Notes: generated by a model not told the origin, from the sequence alone. A stretch of DNA of 64,000 bases from Thermodesulfobacteriota bacterium (GCA_049320885.1 JBMORA010000001.1:132095-196094), one strand, 5' to 3'. Counted from the stretch's first letter, positions 15,971 through 35,703 are shown. Numbers and translations: made by a program.

Positions 15971-17035
15971 ATGTTTAGAAAAAGCTTATGCATGGGATTA
16001 ATACTGTTATTGTCCATCCCCGCGGTGGTGTTTTCTGCGCCATCCATCACCAGTGTTACGGGTACAATCGCCAAAGACGAAATACTGACCATTACCGGGG
16101 CGGCTTTTGGTACAAAGGCGACTCCCAAACCATTCAAATGGGATAATTTTGAAAAAGGAACGCTCGGAGCAAAAGTCGGTGCCCCCAGTTCATTGAGCGC
16201 GAATACGACAAATTGGATTCTGAAATCTTCCGGAGTCGCCGGTCGCGAACCGGTTTACAACGGTACCCAACTACGAAAGAACAGCGCGCGTTCCTCATAC
16301 CATAACATGTCGGTGCCTGACGAAAATTGTTATGGCAGTGGTTTGGGTATCGACTTCGCATCCGAAGATTTTATTTATCTGACCTGGTGGGGATATTATG
16401 AAGAGACAGGCAATCCGACCGACAACTGGAAATACTTCCGGCATTACGGCCCGCCGGTACATGGAATTACGAAATTGACTAGTCCCGTCTATTACATGGA
16501 GGGAATTGTAACCGATTATGTTAACAAATCCATACCCAACAAGCAATGGGTCAGAATAGAATGTGCCTATAAAGCAGGCCTGGACGGTGCCGCCAAATTC
16601 TGGCTTCACACCACTTCACCGGAATCAATCATTTTAAACAGCGATATCAGTGGAGATTACTCCGGATCGTTCAAAGAGCTGCGGATCATGGATTATTACC
16701 GACGCATGGCCGCGGGCTCCACTGTCGTGGATCGAGGCCTAAATGCATGGCTTGACGATGTGTACGTCGATACCACCCAGGCGAGGGTGGAAGCGGGGAA
16801 TATGGAAACCTGGTCCGGCTGTACTCACCGTGAAATACAGATTCCCTCTAAATGGGAATCGAATTCCATTTCGATAACCTTCAATCAGGGTTCGTTCGAT
16901 AACGGGAAAACGGTGTTTGTCTATGTGGTGGATGCCAATGGGAGCGTCAATACCCAGGGATATCCCGTAACCATCGGCGGTACTGCGGCAGCCACGGCTC
17001 CGCCGGCGACCACGTTAAGCATCTCGACCAATTGA
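15971..17035 (+). CDS. secreted protein with IPT/TIG-like terminal domains (function unknown; glycan-binding or lyase-like is possible)
   Basis: AAGGAGG lies 9 nt before ATG 15971. Signal peptide MFRKSLCMGLILLLSIPAVVFSAP. N-terminal SITSVTG...LTITGAAFG and C-terminal ISITFNQG...VYVVDANG...PVTIGG beta-sandwich-like segments. Confidence 0.6.
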   Translation: MFRKSLCMGLILLLSIPAVVFSAPSITSVTGTIAKDEILTITGAAFGTKATPKPFKWDNFEKGTLGAKVGAPSSLSANTTNWILKSSGVAGREPVYNGTQLRKNSARSSYHNMSVPDENCYGSGLGIDFASEDFIYLTWWGYYEETGNPTDNWKYFRHYGPPVHGITKLTSPVYYMEGIVTDYVNKSIPNKQWVRIECAYKAGLDGAAKFWLHTTSPESIILNSDISGDYSGSFKELRIMDYYRRMAAGSTVVDRGLNAWLDDVYVDTTQARVEAGNMETWSGCTHREIQIPSKWESNSISITFNQGSFDNGKTVFVYVVDANGSVNTQGYPVTIGGTAAATAPPATTLSISTN

Positions 17036-19202: not shown

Positions 19203-19901
19203 ATGATCAAGGCACCTCACGCTGGATATGGAGCGGCCCATTCGTTCCTGCTGCTGCTGGCGCTGCTGATGTTGCGCGGCTGCGAACCCGGAATGGTGGA
19301 CGATGCGGTGCTCAACGATTTCGAGTCGGACGCGGATCTGGACGCGGTGCGCTGGACTTGCGGCCGGCTGTACGCCCTTTCGGAAAACCATGCCACGTCC
19401 GGACAAAAATCCCTGGTCATGACCCTGTATCCGGCTGCCTATCCGGGACTGGCCCTGAGGCTGCGGCAAACCGACTGGCGGGGATTCACCCATCTATGCA
19501 TGGATATCTTCAATCCCCAACCGGAGACATTGTCCATCACGATCCGGGTGGATGACCGCGAGGAGTATCCGCCATATGCGGATCGCTTCAATCAGAGCTT
19601 CTCGATGGCACCGGGTAACAATCACCTGGAGATACCGTTGAACAGCCTGATCACCTCCGGCTCCCGGCGGCCCCTGGACCTGGAAAACATCCGGCGGTTT
19701 TTATTTTTCATGGTGGATACGAAACAGATCTATCACTTCCATGTCGACAACATCCGTCTCGTGAATGTGCTATCCTTCAACACTGTTTCTCACTCAATCA
19801 CATACCGGACGACGGTCCACGTCCCGTTGTCATACAACACCCTGCCGGCATACTGCTTTGCCAGTTCCTTCCTGGTTGCCTCGTCCAGTAGAAATACATA
19901 G
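19203..19901 (+). CDS. putative lipoprotein with a CBM-like beta-sandwich domain
   Basis: LLLLALLMLRGC lipobox-like signal. The FESDADLDAVRW...ATSGQKSL...HVDNIRLV layout resembles carbohydrate-binding-module-like domains. The 3' tail overlaps the convergent gene, so the true 3' end is uncertain. Confidence 0.5.
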   Translation: MIKAPHAGYGAAHSFLLLLALLMLRGCEPGMVDDAVLNDFESDADLDAVRWTCGRLYALSENHATSGQKSLVMTLYPAAYPGLALRLRQTDWRGFTHLCMDIFNPQPETLSITIRVDDREEYPPYADRFNQSFSMAPGNNHLEIPLNSLITSGSRRPLDLENIRRFLFFMVDTKQIYHFHVDNIRLVNVLSFNTVSHSITYRTTVHVPLSYNTLPAYCFASSFLVASSSRNT

Positions 19902-21883
19902 TTTCTCTTCATCAGGACATCCGGGATCCGGTATCCCTGGTACACGGCTTCCACGGTCCTGACCCTTTCCTCGATCTCCGCCTTCCCCAGGTATTTGCCC
20001 ACCTTGCCGAAACGATACCCCTCTAAATAAACAGGCCGTTCCGCGAACGTACTGGTCTGGTAGGCCACGGGTCGGCCGTTTTTCAGCTGAATGAACGGCG
20101 TGACCACCATGGTGTCCCGGGGAGTGTTCTCGCGGATATATTGCAGGGCCGCGTAGAGTTTCGGGGTAATAGTCTGATGGGCTTTTCGATAGTCGGTTTT
20201 GGAAAATTTGGCATCCATGGCCTGCCCGATTCTGCCGTACATGAAAAAATTATACGCATAGTCCTTGCGCACCCAGTTCGGCAGGCTCACAAACGGCAAC
20301 GCCAGGATCACCAGTGCCCCGACCAATCCATACAGCCGGCCGTTTCGGTAATAATCGGCCAGCAGGAAAAACACGTTTTCCCTTGCCAGATAGGACACGA
20401 AAAACAGATCCAGCAGGAAAACCGCGCTGGTGATGAAATAGGCCGTATCCTGGGGCCCCAGTCGGATACTGTAGGTGATGGCCAGGGAGCCGAGGATAAC
20501 AAAGAGAATTTTGGTGTGATTCTCCTCCATACCAGCGGTTTTCATCCAATAGGGCACCAGCAGGCGGTATGAAAAATACAGCAACAGATAGATGGGCAAA
20601 ATGCAAATGGTAAATACGGCATGGGCCGGGAGTTGAAACGATTCCGGCACATATTTGTAAATCACGTCCAGAAACGGCCTGGAAAAGGCATTGCCGGTTA
20701 CGTATGAAAGCGGAACCAACCAGGCGCCGGACTTGCCCGCCACCTTATCCACCAGCACCTGCCCCCGAACCGGCAGCCAGAAAAAAGCGCCGTAGGCCGC
20801 GGCGAACCCCGTGAGGCCGCCGCCGATATCGGCCAGGTCCCGCCCATTGAACCGCTTCCGGGCAACCTGAAAAACTCCCCAGAAAAGCATACCGGCTGCA
20901 AGCGAGGCGCCGATGGAGCCTTTTGCCGCCGTGGCCAGAAAAAAGCCTGTCAGATAGACCAGGAGGCTGCCGGTTTTGGTATAGCGACCGCTATGGATCA
21001 TCAGATGGATCACCGTAAAAAGCAGGATAATCCCCATGAAATTGGTATTGCTGTTCAGATAGGAGTTGACCTTGACCTCATGAACCAGGGAGAAGCCCCC
21101 GCCGAAAAGCAGCACCGCCAGGCCATAAAATAGATAGGCCCGTTTACCCTTGACGAATTGTTGGAGAAGAAGCGCCATGTTCAGGATCAGAAACGGCACC
21201 AGCGGCACGAAACCATATTGCAGGCCCACCATATGAGGGACCAGTCCGGTCACAAGCGCCAGGTGCGCGCCGAGAATGTGCACCAGGATATGATAGCCGA
21301 CACCGGGACGACTCTCCACGTTCAGGGACTTGAGGGGAAAGTCCGACACCAGGGAGACCGTATGCCCCGCATTCCAGACATGATCATGGAAAATATCCAG
21401 GGGCAGCAGGCCGGGCGTTGCCCTGGACAGAAAAAACAGCCCGTTGAGAATCAGAACGAACAAGAGAAAAACCGCAAGGGTCCAGCCGGACAAAGCCGCG
21501 GCGGCGCGGAAATGGTATCCCGCGGCATCCCGGAAAAGGTTCCTGAACGGCCCGGCTAAAAATGCAAGCATTGGCCAGACAACCCCGTAATAAAAACCAG
21601 GGAGTCCCGTCAACTGGCCGGCAAGATAGGAGGCGCATACATTGGCCAGGCCGAAGATGGTCGCCAGGGGAAGGAGGGTGTCCCAGGCCGGTTGATGCGT
21701 GAAATCCCGCTGGAAAAACCGCAAAAAAACCAGGGCCATGATATATCCCGGCAGGAGCACTGCGACGAAAAAATGGCCCAGGGCCAGAAACACGCCGTCC
21801 AAACCGATGGCAAACAGATAAAAGAACGCCAGGTTGGCGGCCAGCAACCCAATGGAAACCCCGATGGCAAGAGCTCTCATCAT
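19790..21883 (-). CDS. large polytopic membrane protein with a C-terminal soluble domain (candidate GT-C glycosyltransferase or Wzy-type polymerase)
   Basis: About 14 or more hydrophobic helices followed by a ~150-aa soluble C-terminus. The start is taken at ATGATG 21883/21880, preceded by AAAGGAG. The CDS is confident; the function is only an architectural guess. Confidence 0.6.
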   Translation of the reverse strand: MMRALAIGVSIGLLAANLAFFYLFAIGLDGVFLALGHFFVAVLLPGYIMALVFLRFFQRDFTHQPAWDTLLPLATIFGLANVCASYLAGQLTGLPGFYYGVVWPMLAFLAGPFRNLFRDAAGYHFRAAAALSGWTLAVFLLFVLILNGLFFLSRATPGLLPLDIFHDHVWNAGHTVSLVSDFPLKSLNVESRPGVGYHILVHILGAHLALVTGLVPHMVGLQYGFVPLVPFLILNMALLLQQFVKGKRAYLFYGLAVLLFGGGFSLVHEVKVNSYLNSNTNFMGIILLFTVIHLMIHSGRYTKTGSLLVYLTGFFLATAAKGSIGASLAAGMLFWGVFQVARKRFNGRDLADIGGGLTGFAAAYGAFFWLPVRGQVLVDKVAGKSGAWLVPLSYVTGNAFSRPFLDVIYKYVPESFQLPAHAVFTICILPIYLLLYFSYRLLVPYWMKTAGMEENHTKILFVILGSLAITYSIRLGPQDTAYFITSAVFLLDLFFVSYLARENVFFLLADYYRNGRLYGLVGALVILALPFVSLPNWVRKDYAYNFFMYGRIGQAMDAKFSKTDYRKAHQTITPKLYAALQYIRENTPRDTMVVTPFIQLKNGRPVAYQTSTFAERPVYLEGYRFGKVGKYLGKAEIEERVRTVEAVYQGYRIPDVLMKRNYVFLLDEATRKELAKQYAGRVLYDNGTWTVVRYVIE

Positions 21884-22069
21884 GACTCCTTTTGTTCTGG
21901 TCTCCCGCCTTGGCGGAAGCAACGGAAGAAGGACCTGTCGGCGTGTCACTCTATAGAAGGAACGGGATTGTTATATTCCGACTTCTGATTCCTGTCTACT
22001 GACTTCTATGAAGTCAGCAAAGTTTTCTTGTGGATGGATATTTGGGGGGTTGACGGACAGGAGAATCGT

Positions 22070-22100
22070 GTTCCCCGTGCGCCATCGGCGCACAGGGAAC
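22070..22100 (-). terminator. stem-loop downstream of paralog 1 (terminator-like, no U-tract)
   Basis: GTTCCCCGTGCGCC-atc-GGCGCACAGGGAAC, 13 nt after the stop at 22113. Its core is shared with the hairpin at 24721-24750. Confidence 0.45.
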
Positions 22101-22112
22101 ACGGATGGAACG

Positions 22113-24296
22113 CTACCTCATGGAAGGCGGCAGTTGGGTGAAATCATAATATTCGTAAAGACCGGTGTGAACGGAATTGAGATAGGTCAGCAACTGCTGG
22201 TCTGTATACCCATCGACGACATAACGCTTGATGAATCCCGTTTCAGCGCCGTTTTGCGAATTCCAGTTGGTGTAGAACATCCGGCCCTGGTGGAAGGTGT
22301 CGATATAGTATTTCCCGGAAAAGCAGGTGTTGAAGAAGATCATCTTGTATTTGCAGTCTTCCGGCTGGATGTCCTTGCTGTTGGTGGCATCTATGATGGT
22401 CTTGTTGCCGTACCGGGAGTCCTCGAAATGGGACCGGTATTCGTCCTGGTTGTCGATGCGGGAGGACTGCCGGGTGTTGGCGGGGTTGACCGCGGACAGA
22501 TAATCCGCGATCATCCGGCCGCTGCCACTGCCGGTAAGGGTCACGGTGACCGCACCCTCCACCACCGGATAGGTGCCGATGGAAGCAGTCACATAATTGC
22601 CGGCCGGTGTGTCGGCGGGTTCCCGCTGGTTCAGGGTGACGGTCCCAAGCACGGTGTTGTTCTGTTGGATGGTGTAGGTCACGGCTGTATCATTGTTCGG
22701 ATCCGGGTCATAGGTGACGGAAAAATCATAGGTGCCGGCCGGATTTCTGGTAGGATAGAATGCCAGGGTATACGTGAAGGTGTCCGCAATCGTCTGGTTG
22801 GGGGTGAAACTGTAGGTATACCCGCGGAATCCATAGAGGGTGCTGTTTTTCTGCACCGCCCAGTTGCCGCTGTATTCCACGTGGCTGAATTCCGGTTTTG
22901 AGTTGACGATGAAATAACTCGGGTTGTTCACCGGATTCGGCTTGGCGCCCGTGGGGGAATACCAAGCCGAGCCGCTGCCCTGGAAGCGCTCGAGGTATTG
23001 GCCGTTGGACGAGGCTTCCACCCGGTAGTGGGTGGGATCGCCCGGCAGGGTATAGGTCAGGTAATAATTGTAAGCCGGCAGGCGGCCCGCCGGATCATCC
23101 CAGCCATAGGGCCATTTGGCGTCGCTGCCGTCCTGATAGATGGGCGTCCAGTTGGGATAGGCCTGGCTGTAGCGGAACCCGGCGGTGGTGACATCCACCA
23201 TGTCCGAGGAGCAGTTGAAGATCAGGTTGTCGTCCACATAACGCACATTCTGGAGCGCGGTGTTAAACGGCGGGAAGGTCAGGCCCAGACCGTAATTGGA
23301 ATGCCCGCGGATCAGGATCACGGCGCCCTCTTCCCGGACTGCAGCCAGGAATTGTTCCTTGGTCTTCACCGGGTGGAAGAAATAGGTCACCCCGTTTTTG
23401 GGACTGGTGTAACGCCAGATCCCGTCCACCTTGACGGCGCCGTAGCGCGACAGGCTCTGGCCGGCCACTTCCGCGAAATTGGAAATGCCGCCGTAAATTT
23501 CCACGCAGTAGATATTTTCCGACGCGGAGGTCAGTTTGATGTAGGCCTCCTTCACCATGGTATCGCTGCCGAACTCATTGGAAGCGGTCAGGCTGACGGT
23601 ATAGTCACCGTCTTGGTCATACACATGGGCCGGATTCTCCTCGAAGCTGGTCTGACCGTCACCGAAATCCCAATACCATTCGGTGGCCGCGCCGCCGGTG
23701 CTCAGGTCCGTGAACTGGATCGTGGCAGGCGCACCGCCGATGGTTTTATTGGCGGAAAACTCCGCCACCGGCGGCAGGGTGTTGATCACCTCGGTGAACT
23801 TCACCGCATCGGCGCAGGTGGTATAGGTGCTGTTGGTGCCGGTTATGGTGACTGTGTATACAATACCGGCCACGAAGGAATAGGTTCCAAGGACATTCCA
23901 TTGCCCGCCGTTGACGCGCTGGTTGACCCGGACCGTGGCGGTTCCGTTGGCATGCCGGATGGCAATGGGCGCGCTGGTCACCCGGTTGGCAAACACCGTC
24001 CACCAGGCGGAGACTTCATATTCGGCTGTGGTGGGCGGAATGAAGGTATAGGTATAGGTCGCATTGTTTTTGGCATAGATGCTGTCCACACCATAGGGAT
24101 CCACGCCGCTGGAAACCAGCCACGTACCGGTATAGGACGTTTCATTGTCGCCGTTGTCGATGATGATGTCGGCCGCGGCAGAGGCGAGCCCCACCACCAT
24201 AGACAGTGTTAACAGGATAAATATACTGAATATACGGGCCGGAACCGGCCTCCATCTCGCATTTTTCTTTTCCGTGATGTTTCTGAAAGTGTTCAT
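22113..24296 (-). CDS. secreted multidomain protein, paralog 1 (one CBD-like+PKD module plus a conserved ~470-aa C-terminal region)
   Basis: GGAG lies 5 nt before ATG 24296. Signal peptide present. IIIDNGD...GTW...PYGVDS...NGGQWN...CADAVKFTE domain (golvesin/Xly-type CBD-like). PKD domain (WDFGDGQTS...NPAHVY). C-terminal region ends LYEYYDFTQLPPSMR. Confidence 0.85.
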   Translation of the reverse strand: MNTFRNITEKKNARWRPVPARIFSIFILLTLSMVVGLASAAADIIIDNGDNETSYTGTWLVSSGVDPYGVDSIYAKNNATYTYTFIPPTTAEYEVSAWWTVFANRVTSAPIAIRHANGTATVRVNQRVNGGQWNVLGTYSFVAGIVYTVTITGTNSTYTTCADAVKFTEVINTLPPVAEFSANKTIGGAPATIQFTDLSTGGAATEWYWDFGDGQTSFEENPAHVYDQDGDYTVSLTASNEFGSDTMVKEAYIKLTSASENIYCVEIYGGISNFAEVAGQSLSRYGAVKVDGIWRYTSPKNGVTYFFHPVKTKEQFLAAVREEGAVILIRGHSNYGLGLTFPPFNTALQNVRYVDDNLIFNCSSDMVDVTTAGFRYSQAYPNWTPIYQDGSDAKWPYGWDDPAGRLPAYNYYLTYTLPGDPTHYRVEASSNGQYLERFQGSGSAWYSPTGAKPNPVNNPSYFIVNSKPEFSHVEYSGNWAVQKNSTLYGFRGYTYSFTPNQTIADTFTYTLAFYPTRNPAGTYDFSVTYDPDPNNDTAVTYTIQQNNTVLGTVTLNQREPADTPAGNYVTASIGTYPVVEGAVTVTLTGSGSGRMIADYLSAVNPANTRQSSRIDNQDEYRSHFEDSRYGNKTIIDATNSKDIQPEDCKYKMIFFNTCFSGKYYIDTFHQGRMFYTNWNSQNGAETGFIKRYVVDGYTDQQLLTYLNSVHTGLYEYYDFTQLPPSMR

Positions 24297-24408
24297 AGTC
24301 TCCGTTCTCCCATTGTTATCTTGATACAAACAAGGATCATCATGTTGCGTGAATCCGGCCCACATCCATGGGCCGCATCCTTCCTGCTTTATGTACGGCA
24401 TCAGTAGA

Positions 24409-24423
24409 GCAATAGGCATGCCA
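24409..24423 (-). promoter_or_regulatory. sigma-54 (-24/-12) promoter of paralog 1, TGGCATGCCTATTGC on the minus strand
   Basis: Fits TGGCA(C/T)-N5-TTGC. It lies ~113 nt upstream of ATG 24296. The same element recurs before paralogs 2 and 3. Confidence 0.7.
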
Positions 24424-24520
24424 CCCGCCCCTGCCGGTCACAAAGAAATCCATTGTTATATTATTATGTAATTTGAAATATTTATAATATTTCAAAATCG
24501 AGCGGTTCCGACATGCAACC

Positions 24521-24556
24521 GGCTTGTGTAATTGTTTTCCTATTTATCATGTACCA
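24521..24556 (-). promoter_or_regulatory. conserved upstream block (candidate enhancer/UAS) of paralog 1
   Basis: Core TTTTCCTATTTAT (24535-24547) is identical to 27859-27871 and lies the same 112 nt from the -24 element. Confidence 0.45.
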
Positions 24557-24720
24557 TTTTACCGATATGCAGCACCTTACCGACTCATTTCTGCAACCCC
24601 GTTCCGTTGCAGGGAGGCATCCCACTCATTTTTTGCAGCACCAGGGGGTATCCAGATGCTATCGTTGGAGTTTCTTGTGGATGAATGCGGCTGGCGCGGA
24701 TGGCCGGGTGGGATCGTGCT

Positions 24721-24750
24721 CCCCGTGCGCCTGACAAAGGGCGCACGGGG
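24721..24750 (-). terminator. stem-loop downstream of paralog 2
   Basis: CCCCGTGCGCC-tgacaaag-GGCGCACGGGG, 16 nt after the stop at 24766. Confidence 0.45.
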
Positions 24751-24765
24751 AACAGGGCTGGCCTG

Positions 24766-27615
24766 CTACCTCATGGAAGGCGGCAGCTTGGTGAAATCAT
24801 AGTATTCATACAGGCCCGGATGTACGGAATTGATATAGGTCAGCAATTGCTGATCCGAATATCCATCCACGACATAGCGTTTGATGAATCCCGTTTCCGC
24901 GCCGTTCTGCGAATTCCAGTTGGTATAGAACATCCGGCCCTGGTGGAAGGTGTCGATGAAATATTTCCCGGAAAAGCAGGTGTTGAAGAACATCATTTTG
25001 TACTTGCAGTCTTCCGGCTGGATGTCCTTGCTGTTGGTGGCATCCAGGATGGTCTTGTTGCCGTACCGGGAATCCTCGAAATGGGACCGGTACTCATCCT
25101 GGTTGTCGATGCGGGAGGACTGCCGGGTGTTAAGGGGATTGACCGCCATCAAATAGTCCGCGATAATCCGGCCGCTGCCGCTGCCGGTAACCGTAACAGT
25201 CACAGCCCCTTCCACCACGGGATAGGTGCCAAGGGAAACGATTACATACTTGGCTGCCGCCGTATCCGCGGGTTCCCGCTGATTCAGGGTCACGGTCCCG
25301 AGCACGGTGTTGTTCTGTTGAATGGTATAGGTCACGGCCGTGTCATTGTTCGGATCCGGGTCATAGGTGACCCGAAAATCATAGGTTCCTGCCGGATTTC
25401 TGGGCGCATAGAATGCCAGGGTATAGGTGAAGACATCTGCTCCCGTCTGGTTGGGGGTATAGCTGTAGGTATATCCTATGAATCCATAAAGCGAGCTGTT
25501 TCTCTGGGCGGCCCAGTTGCCGCTGTATTCCACGTGGCTGAATTCCGGTTTCGTGTTCACAATAAAATAACTCGGATTGTTCAACGGATCGGGCTTGGCA
25601 CCGGTGGGGGAATACCAGGCCGGGCCGCTTCCCGCGAAGCGCTCGAGGTATTGGCCGTTGGACGAGGCTTCCACCCGGTAATGCGTCGGATCGCCTGGCA
25701 GCGTGTAGGTCAGGTAATAATTGTAGGCCGGCAGGCGGCCCGCCGGATCATCCCAGTCATAGGGCCATTTGGCGTCCGTTCCGTCTTGATAGATGGGGGT
25801 CCAGTTGGGATAGGCCTGGCTGTAGCGGAACCCGGCCGTGGTCACATCCACCATGTCCGAGGAACAGTTGAAGATCAGATTGTCGTCCACATAGCGCACA
25901 TTCTGGAGCGCGGTGTTGAACGGCGGGAAGGTCAGGCCCAGACCGTAATTGGAATGCCCGCGGATCAGGATCACGGCGCCCTCCTCCCGGACCGCCGCCA
26001 GGAACTGTTCCTGGGTCTTGACCGGATGGAAGAAATAGGTCACGCCGTTTTTGGGGCTGGTGTAGCGCCAGAGTCCGTCCACCTTGACGGCGCCGTACCG
26101 CGACAGGCTCTGGCCCACGACTTCCGCGTAGTTGGTGATGCCGCCGTAGATTTCAACACAGTAGATGTTTTCCGACGCAGAGGTCAATTTGATGTAGGCC
26201 TCCTTCACCATGGTGCCGCTGCCGAACTCATTGGAAGCGGTCAGGCTGACGGTATAGTCACCGTCTTGGTCATACACATGGGCCGGATTTTCCTCGAAGC
26301 TGGTCTGGCCGTCGCCGAAATCCCAATACCATTCGGTGGCCGCGCCGCCGGTGCTCAGGTCCGTGAACTGGATCGTGGCGGGAGCGCCGCCGGAGGTTTT
26401 ATTGGCGGAAAACTCCGCCACCGGCGGCAGGGTGTTGATCACCTCGGTGAACTTCACCGCATCGGCGCAGGTGGTATAGGTCGTGGAAACGCCGGTTATC
26501 GTGACTGTGTAGACCATTCCGGCTACAAAGGAAAAGGTCCCCAGGGAATTCCATTGTCCGCCGTTCAGGCGCTGGTTGACATAGACGGTTGCTGTTCCGT
26601 TTGCATGCTGGATGCGTATCGGCGCGTTTGTGACCCGGTTCGAATAGTAAGTCCACCAAGCGGACACTTCATATTCGGTAGTGGTGGGTGGAATGAAGGT
26701 ATACGTATAGGCGGCATTGTTCTTGGCATAAACGCTGTCGACGCCGTAGGGATCCACCGCAGTGGAAACCAGCCAGGTTCCGGTGAAGGAAGTGCCATTG
26801 TCCCCATTGTCGATGATGACTTCACCCGGATCTCCGCCGGTTCCGGCGCTGATGGTGATGTAGGCCGTCTTGACAGCCGTATCGCTGCCGAATTCATTGG
26901 CGGCGGTGAGGGTCACGGTGTACACGCCTTCCTGCTCATATACATGGGCCGGATTCTGTTCGGTACTGGTCTGGCCGTCGCCGAAATCCCACAGCCAATC
27001 CGCAGGAATACCGCCCGTGCTCCGGTCGCTGAACTGGATGGTGGAAGGAACCCCGCCGGTGGTCCTGTCCGCTGAAAAATCGGCTGCCGGCGGTAGCGTA
27101 TTGATGATTTCGGTGAATTTCACCGCATCCGCGCAGGTGGTGTAGGTGCTGTTGGTGCCGGTGATGGTGACCGTGTACACAACCCCGGCGACAAAGGAGA
27201 AGGTCCCCAGGGAATTCCATTGCCCGCCGTTCAGACGCTGGTTGACATAGACGGTTGTTGTTCCGCTGGCGTGCTGGATGCGGATCGGCGCGCTGGAAAC
27301 CCGGTTCGAAAAATAGGTCCACCAGGCAGACACCTCGTATTCCGAAGTGGTCGGCGCCGTGAAGCTATAGGTATAGGTTGCGTTGTTTTTACAGTAGATG
27401 CTGTCCACGCCATAGGGGTTGACACCGCTCGATACCAGCCAGGTTCCGGTTGCGGAAGTCCCGCTGTCGCCGTTGTCAATGATCACATCGGCTGATGAAC
27501 TGGCGGCTCCGAACACCAGCGAAAGGGACAGCATGATCACAACCGGTAAAAAATAGGCGTGCAGCTGCCTTGGCCTCATTTTTTTCTTTTGCAAATTATT
27601 CTTGAATGAATTCAT
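24766..27615 (-). CDS. secreted multidomain protein, paralog 2 (two CBD-like+PKD modules plus the conserved C-terminal region)
   Basis: GGAGG lies 6 nt before ATG 27615 (MNSFKNNLQKKK..., matching the N-termini of the other paralogs). Same domain plan as paralog 1 with one extra module. Confidence 0.85.
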   Translation of the reverse strand: MNSFKNNLQKKKMRPRQLHAYFLPVVIMLSLSLVFGAASSSADVIIDNGDSGTSATGTWLVSSGVNPYGVDSIYCKNNATYTYSFTAPTTSEYEVSAWWTYFSNRVSSAPIRIQHASGTTTVYVNQRLNGGQWNSLGTFSFVAGVVYTVTITGTNSTYTTCADAVKFTEIINTLPPAADFSADRTTGGVPSTIQFSDRSTGGIPADWLWDFGDGQTSTEQNPAHVYEQEGVYTVTLTAANEFGSDTAVKTAYITISAGTGGDPGEVIIDNGDNGTSFTGTWLVSTAVDPYGVDSVYAKNNAAYTYTFIPPTTTEYEVSAWWTYYSNRVTNAPIRIQHANGTATVYVNQRLNGGQWNSLGTFSFVAGMVYTVTITGVSTTYTTCADAVKFTEVINTLPPVAEFSANKTSGGAPATIQFTDLSTGGAATEWYWDFGDGQTSFEENPAHVYDQDGDYTVSLTASNEFGSGTMVKEAYIKLTSASENIYCVEIYGGITNYAEVVGQSLSRYGAVKVDGLWRYTSPKNGVTYFFHPVKTQEQFLAAVREEGAVILIRGHSNYGLGLTFPPFNTALQNVRYVDDNLIFNCSSDMVDVTTAGFRYSQAYPNWTPIYQDGTDAKWPYDWDDPAGRLPAYNYYLTYTLPGDPTHYRVEASSNGQYLERFAGSGPAWYSPTGAKPDPLNNPSYFIVNTKPEFSHVEYSGNWAAQRNSSLYGFIGYTYSYTPNQTGADVFTYTLAFYAPRNPAGTYDFRVTYDPDPNNDTAVTYTIQQNNTVLGTVTLNQREPADTAAAKYVIVSLGTYPVVEGAVTVTVTGSGSGRIIADYLMAVNPLNTRQSSRIDNQDEYRSHFEDSRYGNKTILDATNSKDIQPEDCKYKMMFFNTCFSGKYFIDTFHQGRMFYTNWNSQNGAETGFIKRYVVDGYSDQQLLTYINSVHPGLYEYYDFTKLPPSMR
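26160..27491 (-). repeat. 2 x 666-bp in-frame tandem coding repeat (CBD-like+PKD module), boundaries approximate
   Basis: The IDNGD anchor codons recur at 26806 and 27472 on the plus strand, exactly 666 nt apart. Confidence 0.85.
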
Positions 27616-27732
27616 ATTCATCCTCCGATGGTTGTTGTCCCGCTTGGAAACAAGAATGCGCCATATTTTATGAATCCACCTGTCATCCATGTGGCGCGAA
27701 CTTCCTAATTTTTCCTGTATGAACGTTTTAAC

Positions 27733-27747
27733 GCAATAGACATGCCA
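27733..27747 (-). promoter_or_regulatory. sigma-54 (-24/-12) promoter of paralog 2, TGGCATGTCTATTGC on the minus strand
   Basis: Fits TGGCA(C/T)-N5-TTGC, ~118 nt upstream of ATG 27615. Confidence 0.7.
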
Positions 27748-27848
27748 GCCCCGATACCAAAAAATGACGGGAAAATCAATTTTAATTTCTATTTTATTCA
27801 AACGAGTTATAAAATATTGCCGTCCAGCCGCGCTGGCCCGGAAAGAAC

Positions 27849-27876
27849 TATGCAATATTTTTCCTATTTATTGTGA
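27849..27876 (-). promoter_or_regulatory. conserved upstream block (candidate enhancer/UAS) of paralog 2
   Basis: AACTATGCAATATTTTTCCTATTTATTGTG. It shares the TTTTCCTATTTAT core with paralog 1 and the AACTATGCA...TTCCTAT part with paralog 3. Confidence 0.45.
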
Positions 27877-28028
27877 AAAAATATACCGAAATAGCACCGG
27901 TCCGTTATAGTCCAAATTCTGATTGATCTCTATCGGCTTTTTTCAGATGGGAGCAGTCGCGGATGACAGGGAGGGTTCCGGTTTCCAGTGCATCCATCAA
28001 GGACGAACCGGAAACCGGGAATGGCCCG

Positions 28029-31000
28029 CTACCGCATGGAAGGCGGCAGTTTGGTGAAATCATAGTATTCATACAGGCCCGGATGAACGGAATTCACATA
28101 GTCCAGCAACTGCTGATCCGAATATCCATCCACCACATAGCGTTTGATGAATCCCATTTCAGCACCGTTTTCCGAATTCCAGTTGGTATAGAACATCCGT
28201 CCCTGATGGAAGCTGTCGATGAAATATTTCCCGGAAAAACAGGTATTGAAAAACATCATTTTGTATTTACAGTCTTCCGGACGGATGTCCTGGCAATTGG
28301 TGGTGTCCAGGATGGTCTTGTTGCCGTACCGGGAGTCCTCGAAATGGGACCGGTATTCGTCATTGTTGTCGACCGCGAAGAACTGCCAGGGGATGGCCGG
28401 ATTGAATGCCGCCAGACCATCCGCGATCATCCAGCCGCTGCCGCTGCCGGTCAGGGTAACGGTGACCGCGCCTTCCGCCACGGAAAAGGTTCCAAGAGAG
28501 GCGAGCACATAACTCCCGGCCGGTGTGCCGGCGGGTTCCTGCTGGTTCAAGGTCACGGTGCCGAGCACGGTATTGTTCTGTTGAATGGTGTAGGTCACGG
28601 CCGGGTCATTGGTCGGCTCCGGATCATAAGTGACTTTGAAGTCGTAGGTACCGGCTGGATTTCTGGGTGCGTAAAACGTCAGGGTATAGGTAAACGTATC
28701 GGCGATTGTCTGGTTGGGAGTGTAGCTGAAGGTATATCCCGCGATCCCATAAAGGGTGGCGTCTTTCTGCACCGCCCAGTTGCCGCTGTGCTCCACGTGG
28801 CTGTATTCCGGTCTGGTATTGGCGATGAAAACCTCCGGATTGCTCACCGGATCGGGCTTGGCGCCCGTGGGGGAATACCAGGCCGGACCGCTGCCGGCGA
28901 AACGCTCAAGGTATTTTCCGGTGGAGGAGGATTCCACCCGGTAGTGGGTGGGATCGCCCGGCAGGGTGTAGGTCAGATAATAATTGTAGGCCGGCGTGCG
29001 GCCCGCCGGATCATCCCAGGCATAGGGCCAAATGGCGTCCGTGCCGTCCTGGTAGATGGGCGTCCAGTTGGGATAGGCCTGGCTGTACCGCAGACCGGCC
29101 GTGCTGACGTCCACCATGTGGGAGGAACAGTTGAAAATCAGGTTGTCGTCCACATAACGCACATTCTGGAGCGCGGTGTTAAACGGCGGGAAGGTCAGGC
29201 CCAACCCGTAATTGGAATGCCCGCGGATCAGGATCACGGCACCCTCCTCCCGGACCGCGGCCAGGAACTGTTCCTGGGTCGTGACCGGATGCAGAAAATA
29301 GGTCACGCCGGTATTGGGATTGGTATAGCGCCAGATGCCGTCCACCTTGACGGCTCCGTACCGCGACAGGCTCTGGCCGGCGACTTCCGCATAATCGGTG
29401 ATGCCGCCGTAAATTTCCACACAGTAGATATTTTCCGACGCGGAGGTCAGCTTGATATAGGCCGCCTTCACCATGGTGTCGCTGCCGAATTCATTGGCAG
29501 CGGTCAGGCTCACGGTATACTCGCCCTCCTGCTCATACACATGGGCCGGATTCTGCTCGGTGCTGGTCTGGCCGTCGCCGAAATCCCACAGCCATTCGGT
29601 GGCGTTACCGCCGGAGCTCAGATCCGTGAACTGGATGGTGGCGGGTGCGCCGCCGATGGTCTTGTTCGCTGAGAAATCAGCTGCCGGTGGGAGCGTGTTG
29701 ATGATTTCGGTGAATTTCACCGCATCGGCGCAGGTGGTATAGGTGCTGTTGGCACCGGTGATGGTGACCGTGTACACAACCCCGGCGACAAAGGAGAAGG
29801 TCCCCAGGGAATTCCATTGCCCGCCGTTCAGACGCTGGTTGACATAGACGGTTGCAGTTCCGCCGGCATGCTGGATGCGGATCGGTGCGTTGGTGACCCG
29901 GTTCGAAAAGTAGGTCCACCAGGCGGAAACTTCATATTCAGCCGTGGTGGATGGAATGAAGGTATATGTATAGGCGGCATTGTTCTTGGCATAAACGCTG
30001 TCGACGCCGTAGGGATCCACTGCAGTGGAAACCAGCCAGGTGCCGGTGAAGGAGGTGCCATTGTCCCCGTTGTCGATGATGACTTCTCCCGGGTCTCCGC
30101 CCGTTCCGGCGGTAATGGTGATATAGGCCGTCTTGACAGCCGTATCGTTGCCGAATCCATTGGTGGCGGTGAGGGAGACGGTGTACACGCCTTCCTGCTC
30201 ATATACATGGGCCGGATTCTGTTCGGTGCTGGTCTGGCCGTCGCCGAAATCCCACAGCCATTCGGTGGGGATACCGCCCTCACTTTGATCGGTGAACTGG
30301 ATGGTGGCAGGAGCGACACCGGTGGTTCTGTCCGCTGAGAAATCGGCTGCCGGTGGGAGCGTGTTGATGATTTCGGTGAATTTCACCGCATCGGCGCAGG
30401 TGGTGTACGTGCTGTTGGCGCCAGTGATGGTGACCGTGTAGGTTATTCCGGCGACAAAGGAGAATGTCCCCAGGGAATTCCATTGGCCGCCGTTCAGGCG
30501 CTGGTTGACATAGACGGTTGTTGTTCCGCTGGCATGCTGGATGCGGATCGGAGCGCTGGAAACTCGGTTCGAAAAATAGGTCCACCAGGCAGATACCTCA
30601 TATTCGGACGTTTTCGGCGCCGTGAAACTGTAGGTATAAGCGGCATTGTTCTTGGCATAAACGCTGTCAACACCGTAGGGATCCAGCGCGGTGGAAACCA
30701 GCCAGGTTCCGGTTGCGGAAGTTCCATAATCCCCGTTGTCGATGATGATTTCCCCCGGGTCGCCGCCTGTTCCGGCGGTAATGGTGATGTAGGCCGTCTT
30801 GACAGCCATATCGCTGCCGTATTCATTGGCGGCGGTGAGGGTGACGGTGTACACGCCCTCCTGCTCATACACGTGCGATGGATTCTGCCCGGTGCTGGTC
30901 TGGCCGTCGCCGAAATCCCACAGCCAATCCGTGGGAATACCGCCCGTGCTCCGGTCGCTGAACTGGATGGTGGCCGGAACCATGCCGGTGGTCCTGTCCG

Positions 31001-31544
31001 CTGAAAAATCGGCTGCCGGCGGGAGCGTATTGACAATCTCGGTGAACTTCATTGCATCGGCGCAGGTGGTGTACGTGCTGTTGGCGCCGGTGATGGTGAT
31101 TGTGTAGGTAATTCCGGCGACAAAGGAGAATGTCCCCAGGGAATTCCATTGGCCGCCGTTCAGGCGCTGGTTGACATAGACGGTTGTTGTTCCGCTGGCA
31201 TGCTGGATGCGGATCGGGGCGCTGGAAACCCGGTTCGAAAAGTAAGTCCACCAGGCAGACACCTCGTATTCCGAAGTTGTCGGCGCCGTGAAACTGTAAG
31301 TGTAGGTGGCATTGTTCTTGGCATAAACGCTGTCAGCGCCGTAGGGATCCAGCGCGGTGGAAACCAGCCAGGTGCCGGTGGCGGAAGTCCCGCTGTCGCC
31401 GTTGTCGATGATGATGTCAGCCGCTTCACCGGCCGTTCCAGCCGCCAATGTCAGGACCAGCATGATAACCACATGGAACAAAGAGGTCTGTAACCGCCAA
31501 AGCCACATGTTGTTCTTTTCCGCGTTGTTTCTGAATCTGTTCAT
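28029..31544 (-). CDS. secreted multidomain protein, paralog 3 (three CBD-like+PKD modules plus the conserved C-terminal region)
   Basis: ATG 31544 (MNRFRNNAEKNN...). Signal peptide present. Three IIDNGD-initiated modules followed by the same C-terminal region as paralogs 1 and 2. Confidence 0.85.
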   Translation of the reverse strand: MNRFRNNAEKNNMWLWRLQTSLFHVVIMLVLTLAAGTAGEAADIIIDNGDSGTSATGTWLVSTALDPYGADSVYAKNNATYTYSFTAPTTSEYEVSAWWTYFSNRVSSAPIRIQHASGTTTVYVNQRLNGGQWNSLGTFSFVAGITYTITITGANSTYTTCADAMKFTEIVNTLPPAADFSADRTTGMVPATIQFSDRSTGGIPTDWLWDFGDGQTSTGQNPSHVYEQEGVYTVTLTAANEYGSDMAVKTAYITITAGTGGDPGEIIIDNGDYGTSATGTWLVSTALDPYGVDSVYAKNNAAYTYSFTAPKTSEYEVSAWWTYFSNRVSSAPIRIQHASGTTTVYVNQRLNGGQWNSLGTFSFVAGITYTVTITGANSTYTTCADAVKFTEIINTLPPAADFSADRTTGVAPATIQFTDQSEGGIPTEWLWDFGDGQTSTEQNPAHVYEQEGVYTVSLTATNGFGNDTAVKTAYITITAGTGGDPGEVIIDNGDNGTSFTGTWLVSTAVDPYGVDSVYAKNNAAYTYTFIPSTTAEYEVSAWWTYFSNRVTNAPIRIQHAGGTATVYVNQRLNGGQWNSLGTFSFVAGVVYTVTITGANSTYTTCADAVKFTEIINTLPPAADFSANKTIGGAPATIQFTDLSSGGNATEWLWDFGDGQTSTEQNPAHVYEQEGEYTVSLTAANEFGSDTMVKAAYIKLTSASENIYCVEIYGGITDYAEVAGQSLSRYGAVKVDGIWRYTNPNTGVTYFLHPVTTQEQFLAAVREEGAVILIRGHSNYGLGLTFPPFNTALQNVRYVDDNLIFNCSSHMVDVSTAGLRYSQAYPNWTPIYQDGTDAIWPYAWDDPAGRTPAYNYYLTYTLPGDPTHYRVESSSTGKYLERFAGSGPAWYSPTGAKPDPVSNPEVFIANTRPEYSHVEHSGNWAVQKDATLYGIAGYTFSYTPNQTIADTFTYTLTFYAPRNPAGTYDFKVTYDPEPTNDPAVTYTIQQNNTVLGTVTLNQQEPAGTPAGSYVLASLGTFSVAEGAVTVTLTGSGSGWMIADGLAAFNPAIPWQFFAVDNNDEYRSHFEDSRYGNKTILDTTNCQDIRPEDCKYKMMFFNTCFSGKYFIDSFHQGRMFYTNWNSENGAEMGFIKRYVVDGYSDQQLLDYVNSVHPGLYEYYDFTKLPPSMR
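29423..31420 (-). repeat. 3 x 666-bp in-frame tandem coding repeat (CBD-like+PKD module), boundaries approximate
   Basis: Anchor codons at 30069, 30735 and 31401, spaced exactly 666 nt. Confidence 0.85.
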
Positions 31545-31653: not shown

Positions 31654-31668
31654 GCAATAGACATGCCA
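31654..31668 (-). promoter_or_regulatory. sigma-54 (-24/-12) promoter of paralog 3, TGGCATGTCTATTGC on the minus strand
   Basis: 15-mer identical to the paralog 2 promoter, ~110 nt upstream of ATG 31544. Confidence 0.7.
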
Positions 31669-31752: not shown

Positions 31753-31784
31753 AACTATGCACTATTGTTCCTATGCTATGTACT
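31753..31784 (-). promoter_or_regulatory. conserved upstream block (candidate enhancer/UAS) of paralog 3
   Basis: AACTATGCACTATTGTTCCTATGCTATGTACT. It is related to the blocks upstream of paralogs 1 and 2, about 100 nt from the -24 element. Confidence 0.4.
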
Positions 31785-31832
31785 ATTTTTCGTATTATTA
31801 TATAAAATTTTAACCATATACAAACCTGCCCA

Positions 31833-33104: not shown

Positions 33105-34421
33105 TCAGATATATTCATGCCCGATTTTCGATACAATGAACGGCGTTTTCCCGCTGTTCCTTCTTTCCAACTGGGCAACGAGCTTATAATCGATTTTGAT
33201 CTCATTCCCCAATCGTTTCCGCAAGCCGGCCTCCAGGGCTTTTTTAGAATCCTCGCTGTAGCTGCCGTCGACGATCAGGTTCAGATAGATATGATCCACG
33301 GCGTCCTGCACGCACTGGGACAGCATCACCCCTTTTGCGCCGTCAACGGAGTGCTCCAGGACATTGCCCAGGTATCGGCCGTCGGGGGTGACGATATAAT
33401 CGTTCTGCCTCCCGACGATGGCTTTTATCTTGCGGAAATGCCGGCCGCATCGGCAGACGGCAGGGTCCTTATCCAATATAACCCGGTCGCCGGTTCGATA
33501 GCGGATCAAGGGCATGGCGTAGTTGACAAACCCGGTACCGATGAGTTCTCCTTCTCCGAGCCGGGAAGAGTCGTTGCCGGTTTCATCCACAATCTCGTTG
33601 TAGGCGAAATCCTCGCAGATATGTTTGGTCTGGTGACCGCATTCCGAAATGATGGTCACATTCTCATGATGGGAATAAAAATCATATACCTTGCAGCGGT
33701 AGGCTTCCTCCAGCAGTTTCCGTCTTTGTTCGGACAGGGTTTCGCCGGCGGTGACGATGGATGTAAGGGGCCGGATCGGTTTTCCCTGCTCCCGGGCGAA
33801 CCGGGCCAGCATATAAATGGAAAACGGATACCCGATAAAAACAGACGGACCGATCCGCGCAATCATGTCCAGCAGCGTTGCCGCCGAGTCTTTTTTCAAT
33901 TGCTTTGCATCAAATCTCCACAGCCGGGCCATGGGGTAGTGCTTGAAGAACGCCCCGGGATCATCAAATTTATAGCTCTGAAACGAAAACGTTTTTCTGC
34001 CGGGAAAGTGTCCGGCCCACTGATAGCTTCTCAGCACACAGGCCAGCTTTTGCGCTTTGGCCGCATGATCCACGATAAAATGAAGGGGCGTGCCGGTGGA
34101 GCCGCTGGTGGAATCCCAATTAATACCGTATTCGGCGGCATTTTCGGCAACAAACTCGTCTTGATGGGTCCGCAGGATCTCCTTGCTCAATAACGGGATT
34201 TTATGCATGTCCTGCCGGCCGCGGAAGGTGGAAGGGTCGAGTTGTATTTTGTTAAAAAGATTTCGATAATATGGAACGTTTGCAGCGGCATGGCGCACGA
34301 TGTTGATGAGCCGCTCATCCTGGTAGGCATGGATTCTCGCCCGATCCCATTTCTGGCTCGTCAAAAAGAAAAAATATTGCTGCGCCACCCTTGCCGCGAA
34401 ACCTAGTGTCGATGTGTTCAT
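33105..34421 (-). CDS. CapK/PaaK-like adenylate-forming ligase (second copy)
   Basis: AMP-binding-like STSGSTGTP and IRYRTGDRV motifs. AGGA lies 8 nt before ATG 34421. Confidence 0.75.
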   Translation of the reverse strand: MNTSTLGFAARVAQQYFFFLTSQKWDRARIHAYQDERLINIVRHAAANVPYYRNLFNKIQLDPSTFRGRQDMHKIPLLSKEILRTHQDEFVAENAAEYGINWDSTSGSTGTPLHFIVDHAAKAQKLACVLRSYQWAGHFPGRKTFSFQSYKFDDPGAFFKHYPMARLWRFDAKQLKKDSAATLLDMIARIGPSVFIGYPFSIYMLARFAREQGKPIRPLTSIVTAGETLSEQRRKLLEEAYRCKVYDFYSHHENVTIISECGHQTKHICEDFAYNEIVDETGNDSSRLGEGELIGTGFVNYAMPLIRYRTGDRVILDKDPAVCRCGRHFRKIKAIVGRQNDYIVTPDGRYLGNVLEHSVDGAKGVMLSQCVQDAVDHIYLNLIVDGSYSEDSKKALEAGLRKRLGNEIKIDYKLVAQLERRNSGKTPFIVSKIGHEYI

Positions 34422-34464
34422 CCCGGATTCCTTTTTACTGCTCACGGTTGCGGACAGACACCCA

Positions 34465-35703
34465 CTACCATTCAATACCCCGAATACCACCGGGTGTTGC
34501 GACTTCAATCACCAGCGTTTCCTGAACCTGCTTGATGGTTTCCTGCAAATCGTTCCGGTCCTTTCCGGCAACCAGAATCGGCCCGAGCCGCAGAGTCTTG
34601 TCTTTCAGTGGACTGATATGATTTCCCACCCGGATGTCCTCCAGGCTGACTTTTTTCACCCCCGGCAGGGAGCTGAGTTCCTCGATGCCGCTTACTCGCC
34701 GGATTTCCCCTTCCGGCAGATAAAAACAGAGATAACCCGAGGACCGGTGCTGGATATCGGCCTTGTCGATCCGGACCCTGCCGGAATCGGTGGCGCAGGT
34801 GATCAACAGTTCGTTGACATTGATGCCGGAAGCCAAGGGGACGAGATCCGAGGAAATGAAGACGCCGCCTCCCCGGATGGCGGTTTCCACCAGATGGACA
34901 TCGCCGGTGTCCGGATCGATGAGGTATTCGCTGTGGGTGTTGCCGAATTTCGGCGCGAAACTCTTGATCAGATGTTCGTTAATGTTCAATACTTTTTGCT
35001 GAATATCCCCCGGCAGCAGGGAGGGATACAGGGTTTGCTTGGGGATGAACATATCGGGAAGATGGAAATAATACCGGTCGCCGATGGTCAGGTTGGTAAA
35101 CTGGAAATCAAAGGCGAATCCCTGGACAACCACCTCTTTCCGGTTCGGCAGAAACTGCTCTACGATGGCGGTCTTGCAGGCGGAAAAGCCGATGGCACTG
35201 TTCAATTTGTCTTTCAGATCATGCCGGCCGTTGACCCTGCTGACGCCGCGGCTGCCCTGACTGTCCACCGGCTTCACAACCAGGGGAAAGCCCAGTTCTT
35301 CCGCCCGATCCCGGGCGTCTTCATAGGATTTGGACAGGAAATGCTTTGGCACGGGGACCCCGATGCTGTCGCAATATTCCCTCATCTGGAATTTATTGGT
35401 GAACCGCAGGGCGCAATCGTACCCGATCCCGGGGAGTCCCAGTTGCTCCGCAATATAGGCGGCCGTCAGAACCGGGATATCCGTCTGATCGGTCAAAATC
35501 CCGCAGATATTTTCGGCTTTCGCAACCCTCAGGATTTCATCCTGATCCCGCACGTCGATTTCACAGGCCTTGTCGGCGGTTTTGAATCCGGGATAATCCC
35601 CCTTCATGCTCACCGCGATGGTGAAGAAACCCATTTCCTGGGCCTGCCGGATGACCGGCACCTGACATTTTCCCGCACCTAAAATCATCAGTTTTTGTTT
35701 CAA
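34465..35703 (-). CDS. ATP-grasp domain protein
   Basis: MKQKLMILGAGKCQVPVIRQAQEMGF pre-ATP-grasp N-terminus. Central LGFPLVVKPVDSQGSRGV and C-terminal E.N.R-type region (LVETAIRGGG). TTG 35703 overlaps the upstream TGA; the alternative start is ATG 35688. Confidence 0.75.
   Translation of the reverse strand: MKQKLMILGAGKCQVPVIRQAQEMGFFTIAVSMKGDYPGFKTADKACEIDVRDQDEILRVAKAENICGILTDQTDIPVLTAAYIAEQLGLPGIGYDCALRFTNKFQMREYCDSIGVPVPKHFLSKSYEDARDRAEELGFPLVVKPVDSQGSRGVSRVNGRHDLKDKLNSAIGFSACKTAIVEQFLPNRKEVVVQGFAFDFQFTNLTIGDRYYFHLPDMFIPKQTLYPSLLPGDIQQKVLNINEHLIKSFAPKFGNTHSEYLIDPDTGDVHLVETAIRGGGVFISSDLVPLASGINVNELLITCATDSGRVRIDKADIQHRSSGYLCFYLPEGEIRRVSGIEELSSLPGVKKVSLEDIRVGNHISPLKDKTLRLGPILVAGKDRNDLQETIKQVQETLVIEVATPGGIRGIEW

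Follow-up and report, generated by a model that had tools for sequence, protein, structure and literature searches.

Exported enzymes that are encoded in a polysaccharide-biosynthesis locus and act on its polymer, such as PelA, PslG, AlgL, and PgaB, are glycoside hydrolases, lyases, or CE4 deacetylases. A β-jelly-roll carbohydrate-binding module (CBM) attached to an enzyme is found in the Paenibacillus xanthan lyase (6F2P), in MiXBM (7EHG), and in the CBM35, CBM6, and CBM36 modules. The related Golvesin_C class corresponds in InterPro terms to CBM6-CBM35-CBM36_like_2, which includes proven Bacteroides lectins (PMC9166713), and xanthan-binding modules belong to the same class or its relatives (PMC10049358). 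The secreted Bacteroides proteins Cbeg4 and Cbeg5, which share this class with golvesin and xanthan lyase, were described as lectins (PMC9166713). The clostridial collagenases ColG and ColH are paralogous secreted enzymes that join a catalytic module to a variable number of PKD-like and binding domains (PMC4356367). Here, we describe three tandem genes, termed A, B, and C, on a 64,000-nucleotide (nt) stretch of DNA (the window) from a Thermodesulfobacteriota bacterium (GCA_049320885.1, JBMORA010000001.1:132095-196094). They encode secreted paralogs with one, two, and three CBM-PKD modules in front of a conserved core domain that we could assign to no curated family.

The three proteins share features with each of these systems. 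Their CBMs resemble those of 6F2P, MiXBM, and families 35, 6, and 36, but are repeated up to three times with PKD domains as spacers, and a further CBM is located inside a catalytic-like domain. Compared with Cbeg4 and Cbeg5, the window proteins additionally carry the conserved enzyme-like core. The PKD domains of ColG and ColH match those of A-C by sequence, whereas their catalytic module, an M9 metallopeptidase, is unrelated to the core, and their binding modules are C-terminal and bind collagen instead of a glycan. Like PelA, PslG, AlgL, and PgaB, the products of A-C would be exported enzymes encoded within the locus of their polymer, but they have no sequence or fold relation to these proteins.

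The three co-directional open reading frames (ORFs) have the coordinates that had been given in an earlier annotation made without database searches (the sequence-only reading; Table 1). As claimed there, each product begins with a secretion signal, which in the translations has a basic n-region before a hydrophobic core, with an AxA site (e.g., LASA↓AAD). A lipobox, a twin-arginine motif, or a PEP-CTERM tail was not found in the three translations; the PEP motif, transmembrane helix, and basic C-terminal tail typical of exosortase substrates are absent, and the proteins end with YDFT(Q/K)LPPSMR within the folded core of the structural model described below. Downstream of the signal peptide, the motifs IDNGD, TTCADA, and WDFGDGQTS recur with a period of exactly 222 amino acids (aa), with one occurrence of each in A, two in B, and three in C, and all six modules are exactly 222 aa (666 nt) long, without indels between copies. 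Because Tandem Repeats Finder, with its period limit of 500, is blind to a 666-nt repeat, a separate repeat search and direct counting were used. The search returned six in-register copies with start spacings of 2653, 666, 2597, 666, and 666 nt. It also recovered the 3′ region three times. The 666-nt spacing of the IDNGD anchors in the sequence-only reading is exact, but its absolute anchor coordinates were 8 nt off; the anchors are located at 24161 (A), 27480/26814 (B), and 31409/30743/30077 (C).

Each module consists of the two parts that had been proposed, a Golvesin_C domain (PF25275; 119, 200, and 269 bits for A, B, and C against a cutoff of 31.6) and a PKD domain (PF18911/PF00801, PKD_4/PKD; 59-185 bits against a cutoff of 27), the latter with WDFGDGQTS in every copy. 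In sequence searches, the Golvesin_C part matched the 6F2P C-terminal module (E 2e-18), and the PKD part matched a surface-layer protein and PKD domains of collagenases. The AGTGGDPGE linkers described before can be read directly in the module translations. Pfam identified two, three, and four Golvesin_C stretches in A, B, and C, respectively, that is, one more than the number of modules. The module count of one, two, and three was therefore correct, but an additional divergent Golvesin_C copy per protein, hidden in the supposed C-terminal region, had been missed.

The C-terminal 463 aa of A, B, and C are 84-88% identical at the nucleotide level. Their conservation had been recognized, but not as what it is: instead of a single block of ~470 aa, we found a ~310-aa core that is split by a fourth CBM. 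An AlphaFold2 model of this region, based on a 24-sequence alignment of representatives, reached a predicted local distance difference test score (pLDDT) of 90 and a predicted template modelling score of 0.86, while a 6-sequence alignment gave a pLDDT of only 46. In the model, β1, α1, a hairpin, β2, and α2 lead into β3, which ends in G72-H73-S-N75-Y-G. A conserved irregular stretch with YVDD96/97, PAYN151YYLTY156, and AWYSPTG follows, and then a jelly-roll at residues 213-356. Behind it are H364, β4 ending at C399, a helix, β5, two helices, and β6; the inserted CBM thus ends seven residues ahead of His364. The jelly-roll fold of the inserted copy is derived from the model (pLDDT ~90), while the N-terminal copies were assigned by sequence only. 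The inserted CBM matches 6F2P residues 913-1039 in a profile search (E 3e-22), and Foldseek related it to 7EHG (MiXBM), 2CDP, 2VZP, and 2W3J (CBM35/6/36) and 6F2P, with E values from 1.5e-6 to 2e-4.

Conservation was counted across ~106-110 representatives. Near-invariant positions are H73 (105/106), N75 (104/106), D96 (105/108), D97 (107/108), N151 and Y156 (both 107/107), R178 (104/109), W186 (108/109), H364 (107/110), C399 (109/110, with Ser as the single exception), and G412 (110/110); H410 is not conserved among the representatives. All eleven residues are kept in 76 complete sequences from different phyla, and each of them is present in A, B, and C. This near-invariant polar set looks like an active site. 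By the searches described below, the core is an α/β domain outside of all curated families.

The extent of the family became visible only in an exhaustive search of 1.84 billion representatives, which yielded 313 matches to the C-terminal region, 96 of them below 1e-30; a general search for homologous proteins had returned only 3-7 relatives. The matches are bipartite, covering query residues 1 to ~207 and ~365 to 468 with a variable insertion site in between. According to match mapping, this site is empty in 13 representatives, holds one Golvesin_C domain in 21, as in the window genes, and accommodates a longer insert in 55; Pfam-scanned examples of the latter contain Golvesin_C plus further PKD domains. 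A separate census with hidden Markov models (HMMs) covered 68 full-length representatives; the insert contains Golvesin_C in 60 of them and a pair of PKD domains in 44. Core-only members without insert or CBM also exist (e.g., P0046, 374 aa). The number of N-terminal Golvesin_C domains among the same 68 proteins is zero in 14, one in 20, two in 12, three in 17, four in 4, and six in a single case. Restricting the survey to one genome per species left 47 loci, all from metagenome-assembled genomes (MAGs) of anaerobic lineages: Syntrophorhabdus and other "Deltaproteobacteria," Anaerohalosphaeraceae/Phycisphaerae, Thermodesulfovibrio/Nitrospirae, Verrucomicrobiota, Acidoferrum, and Synergistales. 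Two tandem co-directional paralogs are present in 10 of these 47 loci. Given this range of zero to six CBMs and the tandem pairs, which answer the earlier suggestion to compare module and copy numbers in related genomes, the series in the window is, by sequence comparison, a clear local example of a tendency seen throughout the family. In the "delta proteobacterium" MAG locus L040 (6651-14936), the family genes are split into several short ORFs, which may be pseudogenes or the result of frameshift errors made in assembling long reads. Named family members are annotated only as "hypothetical" or "PKD repeat protein," and we found nothing on this architecture in the literature on golvesin-type bacterial proteins or exopolysaccharides decorated by ATP-grasp enzymes. 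The sequence-only reading was thus right that no system with this architecture has been characterized, but with more than 300 clusters in the family the architecture is not confined to this locus.

Genes A-C are located in a polysaccharide locus that extends from position 1 to ~44.6 kb, and domain scans of the window ORFs confirmed the glycan-locus setting noticed before. Besides GT4 and GT2 transferases, it encodes a sulfotransferase, two PaaK/CapK-like ligases, a polysaccharide deacetylase, MBOAT and GDSL proteins, an AsnB-type amidotransferase, a UDP-GlcNAc 2-epimerase, a DegT aminotransferase, an ATP-grasp ligase, a flippase-like protein, and a TIGR03016 PEP-CTERM-associated outer-membrane protein. 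The sulfotransferase and the two PaaK/CapK-like adenylating enzymes, encoded at 1757-2758 (+), 3999-5501 (+), and 33105-34508 (-), hint at a sulfated polysaccharide with acyl or aminoacyl decorations. The nearest relative, P0005 (65% identity), is encoded directly after DegT, together with genes for CapK, ATP-grasp, methyltransferase, and flippase proteins, in a locus that is syntenic with the window. In locus L052, the gene for P0006, the other of the two nearest relatives, precedes one for a 701-aa membrane protein, beyond which genes for Wzy, flippase, PGA_cap, GT4, and CapK proteins follow. The 719-aa membrane protein encoded directly downstream of gene A falls into no family of Pfam or NCBIfam and shares 53% identity with this 701-aa protein; from this comparison, it appears to be a conserved partner or neighbour.

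A similar picture was obtained for the 47 distant loci. The most frequent neighbour is a sugar-transfer-associated ATP-grasp protein (PF14397, ATPgrasp_ST; 17 loci, mostly immediately downstream), followed by a Golvesin_C-GDSL esterase (14), a second ATP-grasp protein (13), a GNAT-like protein (12), a CapK-like ligase (10), Wzy_C and GT2 (9 each), and Wzt and ABC-2 exporters (9 and 8). This recurrence of polysaccharide genes suggests that the family is a recurrent accessory of surface-glycan loci. From known ATP-grasp amidoligases, we presume that the gene content of many of these loci points to amide-linked decorations. In L043 (13023-15137) and 13 other related loci, Golvesin_C (and BACON) is paired with a GDSL esterase adjoining the family gene; the CBM is therefore common to different enzymes of these loci.

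The reading that we prefer, which we hold tentatively and with slightly more doubt than confidence, is that A-C are exported, polysaccharide-tethered enzymes with multivalent arms that carry out Cys/His-based amide or ester chemistry on the polymer of their own locus. The Sec-exported, σ54-controlled proteins would form part of the exopolysaccharide locus and have its product as their target. An arm of one, two, or three units, each consisting of a CBM6/35-like Golvesin_C domain and a PKD spacer, would bind the polysaccharide, and its length would set avidity and reach. The ~310-aa α/β domain would be catalytic, with His73, Asp96/97, His364, and Cys399 as the putative active site, and the inserted CBM would hold or present the glycan at this Cys/His/Asp site. 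Because the neighbours include ATP-grasp amidoligases, GNAT, CapK/PaaK-like adenylating enzymes, an AsnB-like amidotransferase, and DegT, the substrate would most likely be an amino-acid- or acyl-decorated sugar polymer and the chemistry a trimming or cross-linking by Cys/His-type cleavage or transfer of amides or esters.

A number of observations weigh against this reading. Core-only sequences of 23 members gave no Pfam match even at E<=10, a profile search retrieved no match to the core among PDB sequences, and an NCBIfam scan of the whole proteins A-C returned nothing relevant. The HMM searches proposed in the sequence-only reading detected Golvesin_C and PKD and placed the whole protein in no characterized family. 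The fold search with the whole model, likewise proposed there, gave the same result: the best 50 Foldseek matches each in PDB and BFVD were all to the CBM and none to the core. With neither a Pfam or PDB relative nor a fold match among those listed, the chemistry of the core is unanchored. Furthermore, the conserved His/His/Asp/Cys set could be a metal site instead, A-C show no evident anchor or route of export across the outer membrane, and an effect of module number on function is conjecture. More far-reaching still, and quite unlikely in our judgement, is the idea that the core founds a new class of cysteine-dependent enzymes with a CBM inserted at the active site, which would mature peptide- or amino-acid-decorated surface polysaccharides by trimming or by transpeptidase-like cross-linking, together with the neighbouring ATP-grasp/GNAT/CapK-type amidoligases. 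It would then represent a "glycopeptide matrix" enzyme that works outside the cytoplasm in Desulfobacterota, Planctomycetota, Nitrospirota, and other anaerobes, and the one-, two-, and three-arm paralogs would serve as rulers for different matrix depths.

The order of secondary structure elements in the model, β1-α1-β2-α2-β3-His73 followed by β4-Cys399-α-β5-α-α-β6, resembles that of clan CD cysteine peptidases, such as legumain (C13), the gingipains and PorU (C25), and the caspases (C14). By sequence and modelled secondary structure, the candidate His and Cys, both near-invariant, each follow a hydrophobic strand (VILIRGH, MIFFNTC), an order that would fit the β-α-β sheet of these enzymes, and the Cys motif C-x-S/T-G is similar to ACESG of legumain. 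The core might accordingly be a highly derived peptidase of this clan that acts on proteins and is tethered to the matrix by its CBMs; it could process matrix proteins, serve nutrient proteolysis, or conjugate proteins to glycans in the manner of PorU or GPI transamidase. We consider this unlikely. The His-Gly dipeptide of the clan is absent, His73 being followed by Ser in 75, Ala in 30, and Gly in only one of 106 sequences, and the distance between His and Cys is 326 aa, or ~175 aa in members without insert, compared to roughly 30-60 aa in the clan. The Pfam scan of the 23 members revealed no similarity to C11, C13, C14, or C25 and the PDB search no sequence match, an hhalign comparison with human legumain (sequence verified against 4AW9) gave a probability of 0.4%, and no clan-CD entry appeared among the best 50 Foldseek matches of the whole model, a list filled by the CBM, or with an E value below ~3e-4. 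Thus, "clan-CD-like" is suggested as a lead from the modelled order of elements, not as a classification.

The lack of a known catalytic relative is also what would be expected if A-C were non-catalytic matrix lectins or adhesins that cross-link or organize the exopolysaccharide, with a structural or metal-binding core. Two to four CBM-like domains per protein plus PKD spacers would suit such a role, and stand-alone lectins of this CBM class occur in Bacteroides (PMC9166713). The intact set of eleven His, Asn, Asp, Asp, Asn, Tyr, Arg, Trp, His, Cys, and Gly residues in 76 sequences is, however, more typical of an active site, members such as P0046 consist of the core without any CBM, and in 14 related loci a neighbouring gene joins the same CBM to a GDSL esterase, which makes this explanation rather improbable. 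A new polysaccharide depolymerase, that is, a lyase or hydrolase that controls the chain length of the own exopolysaccharide or serves foraging on foreign acidic polysaccharides, would agree with the attachment of the nearest CBM relatives to xanthan lyase and xanthanase, and the invariant Asn/His/Tyr/Arg/Trp residues are reminiscent of lyase catalytic sets. Exopolysaccharide loci commonly carry a depolymerase. Still, we found no CAZy-type Pfam match, and a three-layer α/β topology with an invariant Cys is not known as a design of polysaccharide lyases or glycoside hydrolases. We regard this possibility as quite unlikely, too.

The six modules form one clade relative to those of P0005 and P0006, which supports the proposed growth by module duplication and indicates that the expansion occurred in this lineage. 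Nucleotide identities of 83-87% among the core-proximal modules (A1, B2, and C3) and of 86-89% among the distal modules (B1, C1, and C2), compared to 74-83% between the two sets, bear out the two subtypes that had been distinguished. Synonymous divergence (dS) of module pairs ranges from 0.36 to 1.05, and the ratio of nonsynonymous to synonymous divergence (dN/dS) is 0.10-0.27; from these values, the modules are old duplicates under purifying selection, with C1/C2 as the youngest duplication. A1 and B2 differ from the distal modules by a dS of ~1.0 and C3 by an intermediate 0.49-0.65, whereas the genes differ by ~0.5, which suggests that the module types predate the gene triplication. Since proximal and distal types diverge more than the genes, the simplest history would be a two-module ancestor with a later loss in A and a gain in C; the single module of gene A may accordingly reflect secondary loss instead of the starting state. 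A tract of ~300 nt in the PKD part of A1 and B2 (23525-23836 and 26178-26489) is 95-96% identical, compared to 87% over the whole module pair, and a recent gene conversion between the paralogs is therefore likely. Repeats of 666 nt and ~2.6-3.3 kb this close together could in principle have been collapsed or expanded during assembly to give the 1-2-3 arrangement. But each pair of copies differs by at least 10% of its nucleotides, all copies are in frame and under purifying selection, the signal peptides are distinct (57-63% nt identity), the intergenic regions have diverged, and tandem pairs and variable module numbers also occur in independent assemblies. Such an artefact is therefore extremely improbable.

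A TGGCATG(T/C)CTATTGC block is located 110-118 nt before each of the three start codons, and the three matches in the window compare to 0.12 expected. It follows the σ54-type pattern TGGCAC-N5-TTGCW (-24 GG/-12 GC), and a conserved AT-rich block is found further upstream of each copy. The ATG of gene B at 27615 follows 8 nt after a GGAGG. Because each gene has its own -24/-12 element and a stem-loop follows the stop codon of gene B, A, B, and C are probably separate σ54 units. No gene for an AAA+ enhancer-binding protein was found among the scanned window ORFs; it may lie elsewhere in the genome. Similar elements precede the genes of the two nearest relatives. We rejected σ54 promoters as a family-wide trait: none of 57 genes in distant loci has one, and they are restricted to the window and these two relatives. 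Two copies of a 21-nt tandem repeat, CTATGCACTATTGTTCCTATG, are located at 31755-31795, between the AT-rich block and the -24/-12 element of gene C. A fourth σ54-type element, TGGCACAATGCTTGCT, is present at 15896-15911 (+), ~60 nt upstream of an internal Met codon (15971) of the ORF 15869-17035. This Met begins a clear signal peptide, MFRKSLCMGLILLLSIPAVVFSA, and the product has no Pfam match beyond a weak one to TIG. The gene probably starts here and would encode another secreted, σ54-driven protein of the locus.

Table 1. Coordinates of genes A-C, their domains, and associated elements (numbered from the first nucleotide of the window)
Feature	Position	Strand	Description	Basis
Gene A	22113-24296	-	727 aa; signal peptide, 1 module, split core domain	ORF, Pfam
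Gene A ribosome-binding site			GGGAGAACGGAG upstream of ATG	Read from sequence
Gene B	24766-27615	-	949 aa; signal peptide, 2 modules, split core domain	ORF, Pfam, motif counts
Gene C	28029-31544	-	1171 aa; signal peptide, 3 modules, split core domain	ORF, Pfam, motif counts
Module A1	23505-24170	-	aa 43-264, core-proximal type; Golvesin_C 23793-24167, PKD 23532-23774	
Module B1	26824-27489	-	Distal type; Golvesin_C 27112-27486, PKD 26851-27093	
Module B2	26158-26823	-	Proximal type	
Module C1	30753-31418	-	Distal type	
Module C2	30087-30752	-	Distal type; nearest is C1 (89% nt, dS 0.36)	
Module C3	29421-30086	-	Proximal type, mosaic with distal-like tracts	Intermediate identities and dS
Core N-lobe, A	22890-23519	-	aa 260-469; β-α-β-α-β into GH(332)SNYG, then YVDD(356), PAYNYYLTY, AWYSPTG	
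Core N-lobe, B	25543-26172	-	Equivalent of A	
Core N-lobe, C	28806-29435	-	Equivalent of A	
Fourth (inserted) CBM, A	22449-22889	-	aa 470-616; Golvesin_C-like jelly-roll inserted in core	Pfam stretch, Foldseek, profile
Fourth (inserted) CBM, B	25102-25542	-	Equivalent of A	
Fourth (inserted) CBM, C	28365-28805	-	Equivalent of A	
Core C-lobe, A	22116-22448	-	aa 617-727; His623 (H364), Cys658 (C399, in FFNTCFSG)	
Core C-lobe, B	24769-25101	-	Equivalent of A	
Core C-lobe, C	28032-28364	-	Equivalent of A	
σ54-type -24/-12 element, A	24409-24423	-	TGGCATGCCTATTGC; 113 nt upstream of gene A ATG	
σ54-type element, B	27733-27747	-	TGGCATGTCTATTGC; upstream of gene B	
σ54-type element, C	31654-31668	-	TGGCATGTCTATTGC; upstream of gene C	
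Stem-loop	24721-24750	-	Perfect 11-bp stem, CCCCGTGCGCC...GGCGCACGGGG, directly after gene B stop; no T-run after	
Polytopic membrane protein	19790-21949	-	719 aa, soluble C-terminal domain, directly downstream of gene A	

Further ORFs of the window concern the surroundings of A-C. We rejected the idea that the 719-aa membrane protein is an oligosaccharyltransferase with A-C as N-glycoprotein substrates: it gave no STT3/PglB signal and no Pfam match. N-x-S/T sequons are not enriched in A, B, and C (13, 12, and 13, compared to 9.1, 11.4, and 13.8 in shuffled sequences), and D/E-x-N-x-S/T sites are absent from all three. The ORF 36744-38876 (-) encodes another secreted protein of the locus, 710 aa long with a K319L-like PKD domain, whose residues 253-480 resemble the C-terminal part of myxosortase-/rhombosortase-dependent M36 metallopeptidases. 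Opposite A-C, antisense ORFs of up to 796 aa at 22008-22901, 22998-24212, 24685-27075, and 27963-29672 (+) follow the pattern of the repeats, and the region of 22-32 kb has a positive GC skew; these ORFs look like by-products of codon composition and are not genes. At 49934-56661 (+), an Rrf2-family regulator gene is followed by those for a complete HmcA-B-C-E-F sulfate-respiration complex, which indicates that the host is a sulfate-reducing member of the Desulfobacterota.

It is common for modular secreted enzymes to carry CBM and PKD domains; new is the catalytic-looking core without a curated family, which is conserved in more than 300 protein clusters from several anaerobic phyla and repeatedly found within surface-polysaccharide loci. 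Assigning the chemistry of the core would add a missing step in the maturation of exopolysaccharides or capsules in sulfate reducers, syntrophs, and Planctomycetes, organisms that form granules and biofilms in sediments, digesters, and tailings ponds, and would provide annotation with a new domain family. The series of one, two, and three arms in a single genome provides a natural experiment on how CBM multiplicity may tune an enzyme.

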